Shown here one piece after another: positions 4,121 through 40,824 of a stretch of 45,007 bases of DNA. Position 1 is the stretch's first letter, and each line of letters opens with the position of its first letter. A program made the position numbers and the translations under genes. Under the pieces are notes generated by a model. That model was not told the origin of the DNA, did not search any database, and was given only the letters and a program-made list of their open reading frames with translations. Location of the stretch: NCBI GenBank assembly GCA_014469095.1, contig GCA_014469095.1_4330.1. The stretch is one strand, 5' to 3'. Source of the stretch: a phage.

Positions 4121-4154
4121 AACCCTCACCCCTCTGTCTTGTTTCAATAAGTGA

Positions 4155-4183
4155 ATAGTATCCTATTATGTTGGGGTGTGCAA
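4155..4183 (-). promoter_or_regulatory. Sigma70-like promoter, type A (TTGCAC-N17-TACTAT)
   Basis: Minus strand reads TTGCACACCCCAACATAATAGGATACTATTCAC; heads the leftward small-gene block. Confidence 0.6.
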
Positions 4184-27559: not shown

Positions 27560-27588
27560 TTGCACACCCCAATATAATAGCGTACTAT
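27560..27588 (+). promoter_or_regulatory. Sigma70-like promoter, type A (TTGCAC-N17-TACTAT) driving the rightward cassette
   Basis: TTGCAC-ACCCCAATATAATAGCG-TACTAT-TCAC. Confidence 0.6.
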
Positions 27589-27630
27589 TCACTTACACCA
27601 ACGATGTTATCTCAAATCAGGAGTTATGTT

Positions 27631-27822
27631 ATGACCGGTATCACTATGTTCTTCTTAATTATTTTTGTAGCCGTTTATTTTATCCCGTTTTTGGTGGCAC
27701 ATATGCGTAACCATAAAGCAAAGCTGGCGATATTCATGGCTAACTTATTTCTCGGGTGGATTCTGTTGCCGTGGGTATTCATTTTAATCTGGGCTTGCAA
27801 CTCGAACGTGAAAGAGAAGTAG
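27631..27822 (+). CDS. Superinfection-immunity-like small membrane protein (T4 Imm-like)
   Basis: ORF track 27604..27822; ATG at 27631 with SD CAGGAG; YFIPFLVAHMRNHKAKLAIFMANLFLGWILLPWVFILIWA matches the recalled Imm-family signature YF-P...R-H-N...NL-LGW...W..LIWA. Confidence 0.6.
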   Translation: MTGITMFFLIIFVAVYFIPFLVAHMRNHKAKLAIFMANLFLGWILLPWVFILIWACNSNVKEK

Positions 27823-27860
27823 GCTACTATAAGACAAATCCTAAACACGAGGAAGTAAGC

Positions 27861-28991
27861 ATGGCCCAGAAGAAAATAACCGACGAGCAATTACAGGAAG
27901 AATTGAACGCCGGGATGAAGAATATCGATATCGCCCGTAAATACGGAATCTCAGACCGCGTTATCCGAATACGTAAAGCTAAGCTGGCTAAGAAAGGCGT
28001 AGGCCACGGGCGGGACGTAAGCCACCTTGTACCAGACGGCTACAAGATTAAAGGCACGTCGTCTCTGGTGGACGAGTTCGGTAACACTAAGTTGCAGTGG
28101 GTTAAGACAGACACCGATGCCGAACGTCAGGTTGAGTTGATGAAAGCCGTAGTCGAAGGCATGAAGTCGGAGATTACTCCCGTTCCGCCAGTTAAGGCCG
28201 CCCGGACTAAACGTGACGACAAGCTGCTTAACCTGTACACCGTGTCTGATTTCCATCTCGGTATGTTAGCCTGGGCTGACGAGAGCGGCGACGACTGGGA
28301 TATGAAAATCGCGGAGGACTTATTCTCTCGTTGGTTTGATGCTGCGTTTCAGAAAGCACCGGATGCAGGTACGGGGGTTATTAATCTTCTTGGCGACTTA
28401 GCTCACTTCGATAGTCTTGACGCCGTTACACCGGCGAGTGGTCATGTCCTTGACGCCGACACGCGTTACCAGAAACTTGTCCGCTACATGATTCGCATGG
28501 TCCGCCGTGTTGTTGATATGGCTCTGGTTAAGCATAAAACTGTTCGCTTGCTTATAGTTCAGGGGAACCACGACGAATCCGGGATGATTTGGTTGGCTGA
28601 GATGTTCAGTACGCTGTACGACAATGAGCCGCGCGTGTTCGTCGATACGTCGCCGGATGTTTACAAGATGGTGCAACACGGCAAAACGACGCTGTTCTTC
28701 CATCACGGGCATAAAGCACGATTCGACGCTATCGAACCGGTTATGATTGCCAAGTTCCGTAAAGCGTTCGGCGAGAGTGTTTACAGCTACGCCCACGTAG
28801 GCCATCTGCACCACCAGAAGATTGTAGAAAGCCGTAACATGATTGTTGAGCAACACCGCACCTTAGCGGCTAAAGACGCCTACGCCTCTCGCGGCGGATG
28901 GATGTCGGGCCGCAGTGCAAATGTAATTACTTATAGCGCCGAATATGGCGAGGTCGCACGTTTAACTATTTCACCGGAGATGCTGGGATGA
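27861..28991 (+). CDS. HTH-fused calcineurin-like metallophosphoesterase (Mre11/SbcD-type motifs)
   Basis: ORF track 27756..28991; ATG at 27861 with SD GAGGAAG; N-terminal HTH-like NIDIARKYGISDRVIRIRKAKL; phosphoesterase motifs VSDFHLG, LLGDLAHFD, LIVQGNHDESG, FHHGH. Confidence 0.65.
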   Translation: MAQKKITDEQLQEELNAGMKNIDIARKYGISDRVIRIRKAKLAKKGVGHGRDVSHLVPDGYKIKGTSSLVDEFGNTKLQWVKTDTDAERQVELMKAVVEGMKSEITPVPPVKAARTKRDDKLLNLYTVSDFHLGMLAWADESGDDWDMKIAEDLFSRWFDAAFQKAPDAGTGVINLLGDLAHFDSLDAVTPASGHVLDADTRYQKLVRYMIRMVRRVVDMALVKHKTVRLLIVQGNHDESGMIWLAEMFSTLYDNEPRVFVDTSPDVYKMVQHGKTTLFFHHGHKARFDAIEPVMIAKFRKAFGESVYSYAHVGHLHHQKIVESRNMIVEQHRTLAAKDAYASRGGWMSGRSANVITYSAEYGEVARLTISPEMLG

Positions 28992-29476
28992 AAGATATTG
29001 TAATTTTCGATTTAGACGGGACATTGGCCGACGGTACCCATCGCTTACACCTGTTACCAAAAGATAACTACGGAGAAACGTGGGCGTGGAAGCCATTTAA
29101 CATGGCCTGCAAAGATGACGCTCCGATATACGACAATATCCATTTGTGTAGCGTACTGTGGCATTCCGGACTTACTATAATTATCCTTACCGGGCGAAGT
29201 GATGACGCTGAGGAGGAGACTCGCGAATGGTTACGAGAGAATAACGTTAGGTTTGACACGCTAATCATGCGCAGCAAACACGACAACAGAAAAGACATCG
29301 TAATTAAAGAAGAGGTGTTGCGTGCTTTCGGACTGGAAAGAATCTTGTGTGCGTTCGACGACTCTCCAGCGGTAATAAAGCATTTCCGTGACCTCGGCAT
29401 AACCGCACACGCAGTTACCGAATACGACTGTAACGGGAACTCTACACACTTAAAACCACACGGGAGCGATAAATAA
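28988..29476 (+). CDS. HAD-superfamily phosphatase resembling the T4 polynucleotide kinase 3-prime phosphatase domain
   Basis: ORF track; IVIFDLDGTLADG (DxDGT), IILTGRSDD and RKDIVIKEE, recalled as close to the T4 Pnk C-terminal domain (VIFDVDGTLA, VVVSGRESG, RKDDVVKEE). Confidence 0.65.
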   Translation: MKDIVIFDLDGTLADGTHRLHLLPKDNYGETWAWKPFNMACKDDAPIYDNIHLCSVLWHSGLTIIILTGRSDDAEEETREWLRENNVRFDTLIMRSKHDNRKDIVIKEEVLRAFGLERILCAFDDSPAVIKHFRDLGITAHAVTEYDCNGNSTHLKPHGSDK

Positions 29477-30030
29477 TGGCTAAGGTAATTATTCTTAATG
29501 GCCCTGCGGGTTGCGGGAAAGACACGCTTGCTATGGCGCTGGTAGAAATGGGCTTTGCGAAAGGAACTACCAGTTTCAAGAATCCAATGTTCAATATTGC
29601 TTTGGCAGCGTTAGGCCAGGATGCTTACCACGAATTTCTCGACGGCTACGACGACCGGGCGCGGAAAGAAAAACCCGAGGGTTTTCTTAATGGGTTGTCC
29701 CGCCGCCGGTTAATGATTGCCATTTCTGAGCAATTCATTAAACCGGTATTCGGCGATGATTATTTCGGTAAGTATCTTGCTGAAAACTTGCCTGACGGCG
29801 ACGAAGTTTTTGTAGTGTCCGATGGTGGATTCGCCAGTGAAGTTGCCCCTATCGTCGCCGCGGGGCATGACGTGCGAATCGTCCGCCTCCATCGTGACGG
29901 CTATACGTTCATCTGCGATAGCCGTGGCTATCTGTACGATGTTAGTGGTGTAAAAGATTACGACACCTACATCATACCGGGTGACGTTAAATCGAACGTT
30001 ATAGACATTGCTTTAAAATTAGGTTTGTAA
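29476..30030 (+). CDS. P-loop kinase, dNMP-kinase-like (T4 gene 1 type); polynucleotide kinase is the alternative
   Basis: ORF track; P-loop GPAGCGKDT (the GKDT variant recalled for phage dNMP kinases), SRRRLMIAI; start overlaps the phosphatase stop by 1 nt. Confidence 0.55.
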   Translation: MAKVIILNGPAGCGKDTLAMALVEMGFAKGTTSFKNPMFNIALAALGQDAYHEFLDGYDDRARKEKPEGFLNGLSRRRLMIAISEQFIKPVFGDDYFGKYLAENLPDGDEVFVVSDGGFASEVAPIVAAGHDVRIVRLHRDGYTFICDSRGYLYDVSGVKDYDTYIIPGDVKSNVIDIALKLGL

Positions 30031-30034
30031 GAAA

Positions 30035-30061
30035 AAGGCCCCGAAAGGGGCCTTAGTTTTA
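30035..30061. terminator. Bidirectional intrinsic terminator (AAGGCCCC-N4-GGGGCCTT family)
   Basis: AAGGCCCC-GAAA-GGGGCCTT then AGTTTTA. Confidence 0.75.
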
Positions 30062-36562: not shown

Positions 36563-36794
36563 GGGTGATCACCTCTGATTTCGTCTTGCCTTCGTTGTCA
36601 GCGGCTGCGGCCTTTGATTCGTCCTGCTGCTGCCGTTGTGTTTTCTTAGTCATCTCGGCCTGTGCTTTCTGCTGTTGCTGAGAAACGAGATTCGCCCGGC
36701 CTTCGTTCCAGCCGATGCGGTACTGGTAGATGCCGTGTGTGTAAGCCAGGATGATGAAACATGCTCCCGCTACGACAGTTGCTTTAAGATTCAT
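36408..36794 (-). CDS. Rz: i-spanin (Rz-like inner-membrane protein)
   Basis: ORF track; N-terminal TM helix then a Gln/Lys/Ala-rich helical periplasmic region; SD AAGGAG; carries the embedded lipoprotein gene. Confidence 0.65.
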   Translation of the reverse strand: MNLKATVVAGACFIILAYTHGIYQYRIGWNEGRANLVSQQQQKAQAEMTKKTQRQQQDESKAAAADNEGKTKSEVITREVVKYIKTPGRSVCAFDPERVQLKSRAVANANSIPGYDDDAAAVQAGTAE

Positions 36795-37044
36795 GTTTCT
36801 CCTTTCTCGATAAGTAAAGCCCCGCCTTAAAGCGGGGCGCTAGTCCTTATCATTTAAACATAGAAACGGCGTAATCTCAGTAAACCAGTTACTTTTTACA
36901 CAAGCAATAGAGTATGGCCCGTCCGAACGCGTCAGCGTAACTACACTCAGGACTTACGTCCCGCTCCGTTACCTGCCCGCGCCGCGGTCGCTTGTTCATA
37001 CTTCACAAGCTCAGGTGGAGCTTATCATATTTTTAGTGAAAAGT

Positions 37045-37072
37045 CAACTATTCGAATAGTTTATTCCAACAT
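37045..37072. repeat. Perfect 16-bp palindrome AACTATTCGAATAGTT followed by TTATTCCAACAT, copy 2
   Basis: The palindrome carries the CTATT/AATAG half-sites of the promoter core in everted order; lies upstream of the spanin genes and of the 37114 promoter. Confidence 0.5.
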
Positions 37073-37113
37073 TTACAATTGAGCGGAATAACTGGAATAA
37101 GTAAATAAATAGT

Positions 37114-37142
37114 TTGCACACCCCAATATAATAGGGTACTAT
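37114..37142 (+). promoter_or_regulatory. Sigma70-like promoter, type A (TTGCAC-N17-TACTAT)
   Basis: TTGCAC-ACCCCAATATAATAGGG-TACTAT-TCAG, then SD GCAGGAGGTG. Confidence 0.65.
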
Positions 37143-37169
37143 TCAGTTAACTTAAGCAGGAGGTGAAAA

Positions 37170-37373
37170 ATGTATGCAATTTGCGAAGTAGTTCAAGAGT
37201 TCGATGAAGAGTTCGACGGTGACTTGTGCCGTGTTAAAAAGGTTCTGCAGGTTTTCCCTGACGTAAACTCCGCTAACAAGGCATTAGAGCTATTCGAACC
37301 TGGAAGATATGGGGATTATGACACTGTTCTGAGGGTGGTGCATGAACAGAAATTAGGTACAAAATTCCGTTGA
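37170..37373 (+). CDS. Hypothetical acidic protein, 67 aa (single-gene cassette)
   Basis: ORF track; own promoter and terminator, opposite in orientation to the surrounding head genes. Confidence 0.6.
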   Translation: MYAICEVVQEFDEEFDGDLCRVKKVLQVFPDVNSANKALELFEPGRYGDYDTVLRVVHEQKLGTKFR

Positions 37374-37377
37374 AAAC

Positions 37378-37401
37378 TAAGGCCCCGTAATGGGGCCTTT
37401 T
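37378..37401. terminator. Bidirectional intrinsic terminator (AAGGCCCC family)
   Basis: AAGGCCCC-GTAAT-GGGGCCTT then TTAT. Confidence 0.7.
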
Positions 37402-37402
37402 A

Positions 37403-37861
37403 TCAGTCTGGCTTAGTGACCTTCGCTGCTTTACTGACGGCCGCTACACCATCGGCATCGGTAACTTTAACGAAGTATTCACCGACCGCGTTAACCGTCA
37501 GAGACAAAGCCTCTTCGGGCGCGTTTACTACTTCCTTGCCGTCTTTGTACCAGGCCAGTGCATAGGGGGATTTACCCGCCTTAACTTCGACAGTGATAGT
37601 TGCGCTGCCATCTGCCAGTTCAACGTCCTGCGGTTGTACAGAGAAATACACATCGCCTGCGTCAGCCAGATACGGGATTTCATAAAGCATACCCGCCGCT
37701 GGTAGCGCAATGCCAGTCTTGTCTGCAAACGGCATATCGTCTACTGGTGTACCAAGTACACTTTCGTCTTCAATAAACACCACGTTCTCACCAGAGCCAG
37801 ACACGCGGGCGTACTGGACTACGCGACGCGAAGGTACATCAGTTACTTTGAAAAAGCCCAT
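37403..37861 (-). CDS. Ig-like domain structural protein, 152 aa
   Basis: ORF track; YALAWYKDGKEV...GEYFVKV is an Ig-like motif. Confidence 0.5.
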   Translation of the reverse strand: MGFFKVTDVPSRRVVQYARVSGSGENVVFIEDESVLGTPVDDMPFADKTGIALPAAGMLYEIPYLADAGDVYFSVQPQDVELADGSATITVEVKAGKSPYALAWYKDGKEVVNAPEEALSLTVNAVGEYFVKVTDADGVAAVSKAAKVTKPD

Positions 37862-37864
37862 AAA

Positions 37865-38908
37865 CTAAACCTCTTTCAGATAATCAGCAACACGTTTATC
37901 GAGTTCCGCCATCTCTTTAATAGTCAGCTGACGCCCGAAACCATCTACAGATATTACGCGAAACTCTTCCGGCGATATACCGCTGTTACGGAAAATCTTA
38001 CCTCGCACCGGGCCGAGTGCTTCATCCACGAACCATGCCGGTTGTTGTTTAAGGAACTCGTAATAGGTGGTGTCCGCGCTTACCTGAGTACCGCCGTCCG
38101 CGCCCTTAGCCGCTCGTTTTGCGCCTTTATCGAGGAAGTCGAACTCTGAACTGATTACCGGCGCAGTGGTACTTCGACAGTTCGGATGTGCTGGGGGCAT
38201 CGGCCCTTTTCCAATCGCCCACGTCATTCCGTCTCTGGCTCTGCAAATCGTACTGGTACGGCTGTCCAGCGTCGACACCCATTCGTATTTCTCGATGATG
38301 TCGCCGTTCTGCCGGTACGTCTCGTTACGTGCTTCGTTGGATACATGAGACAGCGCGGTGCGTATTACGGTAGCCGCGTTACGTTCTGAGATGTCCGCCA
38401 GCCCACCAGCACCAACAACATTCTTAACAATCTGTCGTGTGGTTTGGCCTTGTACAAAGCCCATCTTAACGCCAGTTACCAGGCGCGCGACCTCCGCTTC
38501 ACCCCAGCCAGACATCAGCTTAGTGAAATCAACAGGCTTGTCACTTAATGATAGCGGCTGAAATTCGGCGGCAGCCCACACCTGCTCGGCGGTAGGCGTA
38601 ACAAATTCTGCGTCTACGTTGGCGGTCAGTGTCTTTACATTCCACTCAGCCTCATACGCCGCCAGCTCCTTGAGGTCTTCTGTCAGCTTTGTTTGCCAGT
38701 CGCCTGTAAGCCCGGTTAGTGCTTCTTCTAGGTCGCGTAACAGTTTATTCAGGCGCGCTGTGCTGCGACCGTCGTCACCGAATAGCAGTACCTGCCGTTT
38801 GATTTCGTCTCGCATTTCCTGAATGAACGGTGCGAGGTCTTTCACTTCACCTGATGCGGTGCGTTGCAGCCATATCTGGTGGCTGATTAGCGATGTAAGT
38901 AAGCTCAT
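37865..38908 (-). CDS. Head morphogenesis protein, MuF / SPP1 gp7-like
   Basis: ORF track 37865..38968; ATG at 38908 with SD AGGAGG; C-terminal AHPNCRST resembles the recalled MuF motif; sits downstream of the portal. Confidence 0.65.
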   Translation of the reverse strand: MSLLTSLISHQIWLQRTASGEVKDLAPFIQEMRDEIKRQVLLFGDDGRSTARLNKLLRDLEEALTGLTGDWQTKLTEDLKELAAYEAEWNVKTLTANVDAEFVTPTAEQVWAAAEFQPLSLSDKPVDFTKLMSGWGEAEVARLVTGVKMGFVQGQTTRQIVKNVVGAGGLADISERNAATVIRTALSHVSNEARNETYRQNGDIIEKYEWVSTLDSRTSTICRARDGMTWAIGKGPMPPAHPNCRSTTAPVISSEFDFLDKGAKRAAKGADGGTQVSADTTYYEFLKQQPAWFVDEALGPVRGKIFRNSGISPEEFRVISVDGFGRQLTIKEMAELDKRVADYLKEV

Positions 38909-38952
38909 ATGCCCTCCTGTGGTATCGCCAGTGTAACGCATAAAAATAATAT

Positions 38953-38981
38953 TTGCAGACACCAACATAATAGGGTACTAT
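38953..38981 (+). promoter_or_regulatory. Sigma70-like promoter, type A (TTGCAG-N17-TACTAT)
   Basis: TTGCAG-ACACCAACATAATAGGG-TACTAT-TCAT. Confidence 0.6.
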
Positions 38982-39016
38982 TCATTGCATCGAAACGAGA
39001 GATAAGGAATTTAGAA

Positions 39017-39298
39017 ATGGCTAAATATTCAAACAGTGATTTATATCTTACATGTGTATGTGTTGATAGCGTTCAGGTAGAGTGTGTCGCTCAGGAGTGG
39101 ACTTCCAGTGAAGAAGATATATTTAAAATAGGGCGCAAGTATTGGCTACACCACGGGTGGTTGACTAGACCTAACGGGGACTCCGATGTGGAACTTTGGT
39201 GGGTAGAGTATCGCGGGCGCTCGTATATCTGTTGGCCCGAAACGAAAAACGGCGCCACCAGTTACACCGCTACCAGCACTGGATTTACATTTGTATAG
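39017..39298 (+). CDS. Hypothetical Cys/Trp-rich protein, 94 aa (single-gene cassette)
   Basis: ORF track 38909..39298; ATG at 39017 with SD AAGGAA; own promoter and terminator between the portal and head-morphogenesis genes. Confidence 0.6.
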   Translation: MAKYSNSDLYLTCVCVDSVQVECVAQEWTSSEEDIFKIGRKYWLHHGWLTRPNGDSDVELWWVEYRGRSYICWPETKNGATSYTATSTGFTFV

Positions 39299-39303
39299 AT
39301 AAA

Positions 39304-39330
39304 AAGGCCCCTTATGGGGCCTTAATTTTA
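39304..39330. terminator. Bidirectional intrinsic terminator (AAGGCCCC family)
   Basis: AAGGCCCC-TTAT-GGGGCCTT then AATTTTA. Confidence 0.75.
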
Positions 39331-39345
39331 TCTCTGTTGTTGGTC

Positions 39346-40824
39346 TTACGCAGGCAGCGCTTCCTGCTGTGCCGACTGCGGAATCTCTCCTGCTACCTGA
39401 GCAACAGCACCTAACGGCAGCGGCGCGTCCTCAATAGCGTTCTGAATGTCCTCGTCAGTCCAGTCAGTTATCCCCGCCTTGCGCAACGCAGCGTAGTAAG
39501 CGGTAGCCGGTAACAGGCCAGCGTTAATATCCGCCATCCACTGAGCGCGTTCCTGAGCGGTCATTGGTTGCAGGAAGAACTCCATATTCAGCTTGAACTC
39601 AATCTCTGTGCCTTCACGCAGCCCCAGCATCGCCGCTACCCAGCGCAACGCATCGGTATACGCCATGCTTACGTTACGTGCGATTGTTGCCATAACGGAC
39701 GTATCAGCACCGCGTTGTAGACGGGCCGATTCAGCGGTGATTTGCTGCGTCGGGGTGATAAGCTGCGCACCAATCTGGATGGCCTGATTCTCTTTATCCA
39801 GCATGTTCTGCTTGGCAAGGTTGTTCTCTCCTGCCTGAACCAGAAACGCATTACCGCCGTAACCAATGTTATGGCCTGAACGCGACCCCATGCGCACGCC
39901 GTGTGGGTTGGCTTCTTTCCACTGTTCCATGCTCATGTTCTCGCCCGGGGCGATGAACAGCGTGGGCTGACCTACAACGAAGCTGGACTCCTCATTGTCC
40001 GCGCTGTTTCGGAAATGTCCGATATTTAGCTCGGCCAACGGCAGCAAAGGTGCATCATCTATAGTGGCGTCGTTGTTGCTCGCCCCAATGAACGTGAACG
40101 GGATTTTGCCGCGTAACTGTTCGCCGAGTTCCGGGAAGATTTCGATTACTTCATCCTGAGCGCCACCTTCGGCATCGAAGCGGTAAATGCGCTGGCGGTA
40201 ACGGCCTTCAATCAGGTCGAGGACACGATATTGCTCGCCGAACTTTGTTTCGAACTCTGCGCCAGGTTCTGAGTATTCCCATACCTCACGCAACACGACC
40301 ATCGTCACGCGGTTAACGGATCCGATGCGGGTGAGTCTCCAGTTGATAATGTTCTCCGCGGTATAGAATGCGATTACCGGGTTTAATAATCCCGCGTTCT
40401 GCTCTGCCGCCGTTGCTGCGGCTGTTTCCGGGGCGTCCACCAGCAACCCGCCACGGCCTATCGAGTTAATCTCCATCAGCGTATCCTGCGCGTGCTGCCA
40501 CAGCCCGACACCTGAACCGTCAGCGTTGTGCAACAGGTACTCAAGTTCAGGCGGGATAATCTGCTCAGGGTCTTTGCGCATCACTGACCCCGTCATCCCC
40601 GCCAGCGTGCGTTTGGTGAAATTGTAGCAGATAGCGCCGTTCTCATATTCTTCCTGTCGCTGTGCTGCGTAGGTCTGGTCAGGCTCGTTCTTCCCGACGT
40701 TGCGCAGATAGCGGATAAGGTCGCCTTCAAGAGCGTGGCGTACCTTCTGCCATTTATCGAAGTGATGCAGCCATTCCCGGTGTTTTGTCTTAACACCCTG
40801 ATTCTGACCGTTCATAGTTAACAT
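39346..40824 (-). CDS. Portal protein
   Basis: ORF track; 492 aa, immediately downstream of the terminase large subunit. Confidence 0.75.
   Translation of the reverse strand: MLTMNGQNQGVKTKHREWLHHFDKWQKVRHALEGDLIRYLRNVGKNEPDQTYAAQRQEEYENGAICYNFTKRTLAGMTGSVMRKDPEQIIPPELEYLLHNADGSGVGLWQHAQDTLMEINSIGRGGLLVDAPETAAATAAEQNAGLLNPVIAFYTAENIINWRLTRIGSVNRVTMVVLREVWEYSEPGAEFETKFGEQYRVLDLIEGRYRQRIYRFDAEGGAQDEVIEIFPELGEQLRGKIPFTFIGASNNDATIDDAPLLPLAELNIGHFRNSADNEESSFVVGQPTLFIAPGENMSMEQWKEANPHGVRMGSRSGHNIGYGGNAFLVQAGENNLAKQNMLDKENQAIQIGAQLITPTQQITAESARLQRGADTSVMATIARNVSMAYTDALRWVAAMLGLREGTEIEFKLNMEFFLQPMTAQERAQWMADINAGLLPATAYYAALRKAGITDWTDEDIQNAIEDAPLPLGAVAQVAGEIPQSAQQEALPA

Follow-up and report, generated by a model that had tools for sequence, protein, structure and literature searches.

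A single-gene cassette at positions 38953–39330 of a 45,007-nucleotide stretch of phage DNA (the window; GenBank assembly GCA_014469095.1, contig GCA_014469095.1_4330.1) encodes a 93-residue protein. The cassette lies antisense to the late genes, between the Mu-F-type head-morphogenesis gene, from which it diverges, and the portal gene. Comparison with related phages suggests that it is an autonomous, exchangeable carrier of an accessory gene and that its product would be a dispensable protein acting early in host interaction or counter-defence, not a component of the virion or of its assembly; we put the probability of this reading at roughly 55%. The cassette and its boundaries are real, as judged from the nucleotide sequence. 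The window represents Escherichia phage vB_EcoS-22664BS2 (MZ234010; Kagunavirus, Guernseyvirinae), a virulent siphovirus that was isolated on an ST131 E. coli strain; the 701 bases around the cassette match it in reverse orientation at 100% identity.

Cargo exchange between fixed slots

The layout noted in a preliminary description of the stretch, a single-gene unit with a 'type A' promoter motif, a Shine–Dalgarno sequence, one gene and a palindromic terminator set antisense to the late operon, is seen in the sequence (Table 1). The neighbours named there as portal and head-morphogenesis genes match the Pfam families DUF4055 and Phage_Mu_F, respectively. The unit at 37114, named there as a counterpart, has the same architecture with the same promoter motif, a single gene for a 67-residue protein and the same terminator stem. 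The protein length needs correction from 94 to 93 residues, with 94 codons including the stop.

The cassette occupies one of four sites that are defined in the window by the end of their upstream flank (slot A, 37113; slot B, 38952; slot C, 27559; slot D, 4184). Every placeable copy of the promoter motif, which is all but two, maps to one of these four sites. The 93-residue protein gene is found in slot B in the window and in contigs L060, L061 and L062 and in slot A in phage EP-B-K_E2 (L004) and contig L059. Presence or absence of the cassette among syntenic relatives, which the preliminary description had proposed as a check, does vary: phage BUCT789 has nothing in slot B, phiWAO78-1 and many IMG/VR contigs carry other cargo there, and EP-B-K_E2 and L059 have the gene itself in slot A. 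A gap of 69 bp separates the portal and Mu-F genes of BUCT789 and looks like the scar of a cargo deletion between promoter and terminator. In slot B of phiWAO78-1 and L059, three different genes follow the same promoter and leader. Across the IMG/VR loci, 11 occupants of slot B and 25 of slot A represent about 15 unrelated cargo families. Besides the 93-residue protein gene, at least five of these families occur in either slot A or slot B, encoding 173-residue β-clamp-like, 94-residue, 57-residue and 61–64-residue proteins and N6/N4 DNA methyltransferases of roughly 240 residues.

The boundaries of exchange are visible in a multiple alignment, in which homology between slot A and slot B units starts at the AT-rich/−35 region and stops at the hairpin, with unrelated flanks on either side. 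The only sequences common to all occupants of slots A and B are the 5′ promoter-leader and the 3′ terminator stem. Between the slot A copy of the 93-residue protein gene in L004 and the slot B copies in L061 and L062, identity is 94.7% and synonymous divergence (dS) is 0.05–0.09; for the neighbouring Mu-F genes, dS among the four sequenced comparison genomes is 0.5–0.7. These sequence comparisons show that cargo, including the 93-residue protein gene, has moved both between slots and between genomes. The gene is itself a mosaic, in that its first ∼25 codons are shared with the L059 copy and then diverge (window 39035–39110, alignment A4 columns 120–200), and the remainder of the L059 copy groups with L060. 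This pattern indicates probable recombination within the cargo as well as at its borders.

Promoter motif, leader and terminator hairpin

The 32-bp motif at the head of the cassette contains a proposed −35 hexamer (TTGCAG, 38953–38958) and a proposed −10 hexamer (TACTAT, 38976–38981) separated by a 17-nt spacer. Four copies are present in the window at three or fewer mismatches, with none expected from 100 shuffles. An 18-mer from the motif, ATAATAGGGTACTATTCA, is found exactly in 49 IMG/VR loci, all of them on 34–45-kb or fragmentary Kagunavirus-like contigs. A longer query of 80 nt comprising the promoter and the 5′ untranslated region (38940–39019) matched 216 phage records, all from Guernseyvirinae phages of Escherichia, Salmonella and relatives. 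The motif had been seen before but never analysed: for the related phage Golestan, the seven sites that correspond to the four full and three core copies in the window appear among the PHIRE 'conserved promoters' (PMC7203180 Table S4). Conservation and position are the grounds on which we infer a promoter here.

The most conserved part of the motif is its quasi-palindromic core, AATAG-GGTA-CTATT (38966–38984 and other copies), and in most copies a perfect TATAAT lies 13 nt upstream of the proposed −10 hexamer. The TATAAT and the quasi-palindrome suggest dual −10 elements or a putative operator for a dimeric phage regulator. A search by eye for a minus-strand head-gene promoter inside the quasi-palindromic motif gave nothing convincing. 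The leader that follows the motif is not specific to the 93-residue protein gene; in other phages it also precedes unrelated cargo, namely a gene for the 61–64-residue MTNTYELT protein, a membrane-protein cargo and a slot D gene.

The 3′ end of the cassette is formed by a hairpin (39304–39323) with a predicted folding energy of −20.6 kcal/mol on either strand (z −4.2 and −5.7), a value reached by no shuffle. Its GGCCCC/GGGGCC stem is common to the ends of the antisense units in slots A (37379–37399), B and C (30033–30056), and the same stem closes cassettes with other cargo in other phages. The T-run of the hairpin is better on the minus strand, 22 nt past the portal gene, and the hairpin is therefore predicted to serve also as a terminator for the late strand after the portal gene. 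Because the better late-strand terminator stands directly past the portal gene, late transcription of Mu-F and the genes downstream of it must either read through the hairpin, rely on antitermination or restart. The hairpin is retained in empty slots (e.g. L003:1640–1670). In the empty slot of BUCT789 (L003:1618–1665; compare the Golestan PHIRE site 2775–2794), a degenerate −10 element, TTAATAGCATACTATAA, directly abuts the hairpin.

The 93-residue protein

The 93-residue protein gene is a real gene under purifying selection, as estimated from its codon substitutions: the ratio of nonsynonymous to synonymous divergence (dN/dS) is 0.15–0.32 at a dS of 0.3–0.7 in the more diverged pairs among six Kagunavirus copies. 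All database homologues have 93 residues. The 129-residue version in GenBank (22664BS2_018, starting at 38909) was rejected on this ground and on that of the upstream sequence, which is unrelated in slot A copies. The 36-codon N-terminal extension of 22664BS2_018 crosses the promoter of its own gene, and the coding sequence (CDS) 22664BS2_040 lies over the slot C promoter; the extension and 22664BS2_040 are probably annotation artefacts.

Among at least 78 related GenBank records, only six carry the gene. Outside Kagunavirus, homologues with 35–42% identity are encoded by Wifcevirus myoviruses, and word-indexed homology searches recovered only 15 clusters, none of them from outside the Kagunavirus and Wifcevirus groups. 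No homologue was found at the DNA level in 5,426 complete E. coli genomes or in the PLSDB plasmids, and a host or prophage origin was dropped for that reason. The isolation paper of 22664BS2 and the BASEL paper on Wifcevirus contained nothing on the gene.

The product is acidic (isoelectric point 5.0) and soluble, and no signal peptide, lipobox or membrane segment is present (maximum 19-residue Kyte–Doolittle mean 1.07). The preliminary description had called it rich in Trp, Tyr and Cys. The Trp enrichment stands, with 6 of 93 residues (6.5% vs 1.4% in the phage proteome; P = 0.002), and Cys is weakly enriched (four residues); Tyr (six residues) is not significantly enriched. C72, W61 and W62 are invariant across the family and C23 is nearly so. 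A zinc-binding or disulfide explanation of the Cys content was rejected, with conservation confined to C72 and, nearly, C23. The earlier statement that the protein has no recognisable family holds for Pfam, PHROGs, NCBIfam and PADLOC, none of which gave a match, and these family libraries are also silent on the Wifcevirus homologues. It does not extend to the Wifcevirus homologues themselves, to a Gp54-like predicted fold or to a motif resembling a blade of PLL lectins.

An AlphaFold2 model built from 14 sequences has a mean predicted local distance difference test score (pLDDT) of 83.8 and a predicted template modelling score (pTM) of 0.75. The model is all-β with six strands and a 14-residue β1-β2 loop. 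A six-stranded β-barrel with a prominent β1-β2 loop is also a feature of Gp54 of phage Bas11 (PDB 9AXB; PF25180), a direct trigger of the CapRelSJ46 defence protein (PMC11578894), and the predicted fold is Gp54-like. Gp54 is shorter, with 66 residues vs 93, and even close Gp54 homologues fail to activate CapRelSJ46 (PMC11578894). The sole stretch of the two families that is aligned by hhalign is I-F-K-x-G (I35–G39 of the cassette protein and I20–G24 of Gp54). In both AlphaFold2 models this stretch ends two residues before β2, at the close of the 14-residue loop, and its glycine in Gp54 is G24, the site of a CapRel-escape mutation.

Proposed mechanism, timing and function

On the most economical reading, cargo would be exchanged during co-infection by homologous recombination at the conserved promoter-leader (about 45–75 bp) and hairpin (about 20–30 bp). 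The phage 22664BS2 encodes a DUF2800 PD-(D/E)XK nuclease and an Enc34-type single-stranded DNA-binding protein and therefore has recombination functions of its own. The host σ70 RNA polymerase would fire the promoter early, and the hairpin would keep the transcript from entering the portal gene in antisense. The product would then bind a host protein early in infection and serve in counter-defence or host takeover. Early transcription by the host polymerase appears likely because the motif heads the small genes of slot D and the unit with the Imm gene, because of the array in which the Wifcevirus homologue is found, and because the 22664BS2 annotation contains no RNA polymerase gene. The Wifcevirus array is long and consists of small hypothetical genes, and the homologue comes directly after a terminator-promoter element in it. 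The 3′ arm of the hairpin in that element supplies the −35 hexamer of a TTGCCT-16-TATACT promoter (L007:3417–3486 and L005:3417–3486). By its predicted parts, the Wifcevirus element is a composite terminator-promoter of the promoter-early stem-loop (PeSL) type in a non-T4 myovirus.

Several points weigh against the reading of the cassette as a mobile carrier of an early counter-defence or host-interaction factor. Recombination is deduced only from its end-products, and the literature yielded no transcript map for any Guernseyvirinae phage. The σ70 consensus score of the promoter is modest (7/12), and a promoter scan tool made no call. The conservation of the motif over 32 bp, together with its quasi-palindromic core, could reflect regulation by a phage factor instead of plain early σ70 use. 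The proposed function draws on guilt by association and a predicted fold. Most other slot cargos are likewise of uncharacterised function, which makes any enrichment in anti-defence genes hypothetical. The similarity to Gp54 is confined to the model: Foldseek found no significant match in BFVD or PDB and did not recover Gp54, the Pfam profile PF25180 did not match at E ≤ 10, with Gp54 itself reaching 116 bits, and hhalign against the Gp54 family was insignificant (Prob 0.2%). Sequence comparison of the proteins accordingly gives no support for homology to Gp54.

If the preferred reading holds, Kagunavirus and its Salmonella relatives possess two or three fixed, promoter-defined slots with fast turnover. 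A search with the 18-mer then gathers small accessory genes of about 15 families, orphan DNA methyltransferases among them, that would be prime candidates for counter-defence or host-takeover functions. For annotation, the start of 22664BS2_018 is corrected, and antisense 'hypothetical' genes in the head module are to be read as non-structural. Kagunavirus-type phages are used in therapy, and the BASEL collection now makes them available on E. coli K-12 derivatives. The rare Gp54-type barrel is predicted here for a second phage lineage, which could help to find the role of this fold and the reason for which bacteria sense it.

A bolder version of the proposal, which we consider unlikely, takes the promoter and hairpin as a recombinase-free 'expression slot' system across Guernseyvirinae, by which co-infecting phages would trade counter-defence genes ready for expression, and the 93-residue protein as a distant member of a Gp54-like superfamily built from the propeller W-motif. 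Were it true, any gene that follows the motif would become a candidate for anti-defence or host takeover, much as promoters mark Acrs in archaeal viruses. Gp54, the orphan CapRel trigger, would also be linked to proteins of unrelated siphoviruses and myoviruses, and this link would point to the native role of the fold.

Alternative explanations

The location between the portal and Mu-F genes and the small size of the product would suit a capsid accessory or assembly factor, such as a decoration protein or a scaffold- or portal-associated protein. This explanation is extremely unlikely given the opposite strand of the gene and its own promoter, of the type that heads the small-gene run by the replication module. 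Furthermore, the gene is absent from most Kagunavirus genomes with nearly identical head genes and is found at the other slot in other phages, its Wifcevirus homologue lies outside the structural module, and the slot otherwise holds methyltransferases and further non-structural genes. Homology to a known capsid accessory protein, a possibility raised in the preliminary description, was looked for and not found; the protein has no similarity to any structural family, and the gene is not co-oriented with the late operon. The cassette could alternatively matter as a transcription element, with antisense transcription or the hairpin tuning portal and Mu-F expression and the open reading frame (ORF) an incidental or neutral passenger. 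The good late-strand terminator directly past the portal gene, its retention in empty slots along with a −10 remnant, and the convergent and divergent arrangement of the cassette with the portal and Mu-F genes, respectively, are compatible with such a role. It is nonetheless very unlikely in view of the purifying selection on the ORF and of its protein-level conservation in an unrelated phage genus that lacks this context. Moreover, cargos replace one another and the promoter and terminator stay, and therefore it is the coding content that varies and is selected. A similarly low probability attaches to a superinfection-exclusion or competition factor that acts against other phages like the Imm-type gene. 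The same promoter precedes the Imm_superinfect gene at 27604, and membrane or lipoprotein-like cargos share the slots; the 93-residue protein, however, lacks the signal peptide, lipobox and membrane segment of known envelope-acting exclusion proteins.

Somewhat less remote, although still improbable, is a small lectin-like module that stems from one or two W-motif blades of a PLL/PHL-type β-propeller. Such a module would assemble into a propeller-like ring oligomer and bind a small ligand, whether a sugar or another compound, with envelope-precursor and nucleotide-sugar moieties as examples. The only PDB hit of the family profile is the lectin PLL3, at an E-value of 0.0011 that is summed over five blade matches, and an exhaustive profile search of 1.8 billion representatives retrieved PLL-like repeat proteins (P0029, E 6e-7; P0036, E 1e-5). 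For five targets, real scores of 41–64 bits compare with a maximum of 9.5 bits among 300 composition-preserving shuffles per target (z 5.4–8.0). An hhalign comparison with the blade alignment (the PLL/PHL family) gave Prob 93% over residues 18–55, with blades picked post hoc. The conserved F, G, L, H, W, T, P-N, W and G residues have a spacing that fits a blade, and the protein is rich in Trp. The 93-residue protein, by these profile comparisons, carries one W-motif-like blade signature. However, only a single blade-length match is observed, single-blade scores are weak (9 bits), and the blade alignment was selected after the fact. In the model, the monomer forms a closed barrel, which is similar to Gp54 and unlike a blade. 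PLL lectins bind sugars between neighbouring blades of a ring of seven (PMC6943638), and a ring of the 93-residue protein is hypothetical. In addition, known PLL lectins act extracellularly, and the protein has no export signal. Membership in the PLL/PHL family requires seven tandem W-motif blades, and the one blade-length match here places the protein outside it. The top non-family hits, P0016 and P0048, were discarded as translated tandem DNA repeats, e.g. eight copies of CHWLQHGVCTRPN. Their summed repeat matches gave a biologically meaningless E-value of 1e-15, which calls for caution with repeat-driven E-values. FG-GAP_3 Pfam labels on other hits were set aside as weak and secondary to the PLL-type blade.

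Genome setting and other slot cargos

The cassette has a lower GC content (43.7%; CDS 46.1%) than the flanking genes (53.2% and 55.4%), and the GC content at third codon positions (GC3) is 46.8% in the cassette gene vs 54.9% and 63.9% in the flanking genes. No RNA family was found by Rfam in window positions 36700–39450. The Mu-F gene starts at the ATG at 38908, with AGGAGG upstream, and all homologues begin with MSLLTSL. The overlap of the cassette promoter with the 5′ end of this gene, described previously, is lost with this start. A 367-residue Mu-F ORF starting at 38968 was rejected on comparative data, as it needs a C in the promoter spacer that is not conserved and is T in most relatives.

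The slot C unit encodes an Imm_superinfect protein (27604–27822), a 376-residue calcineurin-like phosphoesterase-related protein, a protein with a PNKP phosphatase domain and an uncharacterised 184-residue protein. In other Kagunavirus contigs, the first gene of slot C is replaced by one for a 108-residue secreted or lipoprotein-like protein. A frequent cargo of slots A and B is the 173-residue protein (L020:1924+, L030, L033, L040, L043, L048 and L050), which is weakly similar to DNA polymerase III β-clamp and phage processivity factors (Pfam E 0.007; PHROG 947 E 1e-10), is annotated as 'DNA polymerase III beta subunit' in phage fEg-Eco19 and could mimic the clamp. Two different N6/N4 DNA methyltransferases (PF01555) with a common C-terminal half are found in slot B (L035:2579, minus strand) and slot A (L052:3859, plus strand); a role for such orphan methylases as anti-restriction cargo is plausible.

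Table 1. Features of the cassette and of related loci in the window
Feature	Position	Strand	Remarks
AT-rich stretch, UP-element-like, 5′ of the −35 hexamer	38941–38952	+	Left limit of slot A/slot B homology; flanks alignable from about here
32-bp promoter-like motif ('type A'), TTGCAGACACCAACATAATAGGGTACTATTCA	38953–38984	+	Assigned from conservation and position
5′ untranslated leader, atcgaaacgagagataaggaatttagaa	38985–39016	+	Shine–Dalgarno AAGGA 39004–39008, 8 nt before ATG 39017
93-residue protein gene	39017–39298	+	ORF; stop TAG 39296–39298
Bidirectional intrinsic terminator (predicted)	39297–39333	both	Stem AAGGCCCC / GGGGCCTT, 39304–39323; loop TTAT
Full motif copies	4152–4183 (−), 27560–27591 (+), 37114–37145 (+), 38953–38984 (+)		
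Core-only motif copies	3031, 8076, 8120	−	Three further sites in the window
Sister cassette, slot A	37114–37399	+	Same promoter; 67-residue protein gene 37170–37373; same terminator stem
Antisense unit, slot C	27560–30056	+	Inside the tail-gene module; same promoter and terminator stem
Slot D	4152–4183	−	Run of small genes behind the motif, adjoining the replication module
Head-morphogenesis gene, Phage_Mu_F / SPP1 gp7-like	37865–38908	−	Left flank; Pfam E 5.5e-13; GenBank CDS 22664BS2_019
Portal gene, DUF4055	39346–40824	−	Right flank, convergent with the cassette; Pfam E 1.6e-24; portal annotation in relatives

Comparison with known systems

The 93-residue protein resembles PLL/PHL lectins in residues from about 18 to 67, which show the W-motif blade signature with the same spacing. 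It differs from them in its overall form, with seven tandem blades in about 370 residues in the lectins and a 93-residue closed-barrel model without an export signal here.

As a genetic unit, the cassette is close to morons, a concept from lambdoid phages (Juhala/Hendrix; reviewed in 'The moron comes of age', PMC3594210). Like morons, it is inserted between genes that are adjacent in relatives and appears dispensable and horizontally spread. Its gene lies between conserved sequence elements that would be a promoter and a terminator of its own. Its insertion between the neighbouring genes is variable, as seen in the 69-bp gap of BUCT789 and the 6 of 78 or more records with the gene, and its composition is distinct from that of the flanks in both GC, which is lower, and GC3. 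Classical morons, in contrast, are expressed from the prophage to the benefit of the lysogen, whereas Kagunavirus phages are virulent and the gene is absent from the 5,426 E. coli genomes. The published relative Golestan was likewise reported to lack lysogeny genes. The cassette is also unlike morons in that its phage is a strictly virulent siphovirus with no prophage state, its promoter is of the phage's own conserved type rather than foreign, and insertion is observed only in fixed slots with shared boundaries.

The second counterpart is the PeSL cassette of T4-type phages (Arbiol et al. 2010, PMC2839356; Comeau et al. 2014, PMC4122927). Both systems surround variable ORFans with repeated σ70-like promoters, AT-rich upstream sequences and GC-rich stem-loop terminators, and in both, recombination between repeats would explain the replacement, loss and relocation of genes. 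The promoter studied here is repeated beside variable ORFans (four full and three core copies in the window; 49 loci), with its 'early' character presumed. Identical cargo families are found in both slots with homology bounded by the promoter and hairpin, from which we infer the exchange process itself. The composite promoter/stem-loop motif of PeSLs is not present, however, and the hairpin lies about 320 bp from the promoter, 3′ of the cargo. Promoter and hairpin thus form opposite ends of the unit and abut only in empty slots. The cassettes are also confined to two or three slots, antisense in the late structural module of a 45-kb siphovirus, vs about 50 motifs in hyperplastic regions. Mini-circles and promoter and terminator activity have been demonstrated for PeSLs; for the cassette, mini-circles are hypothetical and the two activities predicted. 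Within these bounds, the unit is a moron-like and PeSL-like exchangeable expression cassette, as defined by its predicted elements, in a virulent phage.

A further parallel is found among archaeal viruses, in which a conserved strong promoter motif marks small variable accessory genes (PMC11065993). The archaeal case concerns another domain of life and another motif, and its anti-defence function has been demonstrated, whereas that of the cassette is only a hypothesis. By analogy, promoter marking in the Guernseyvirinae phages suggests that regulatory sequences may offer a route to counter-defence genes.

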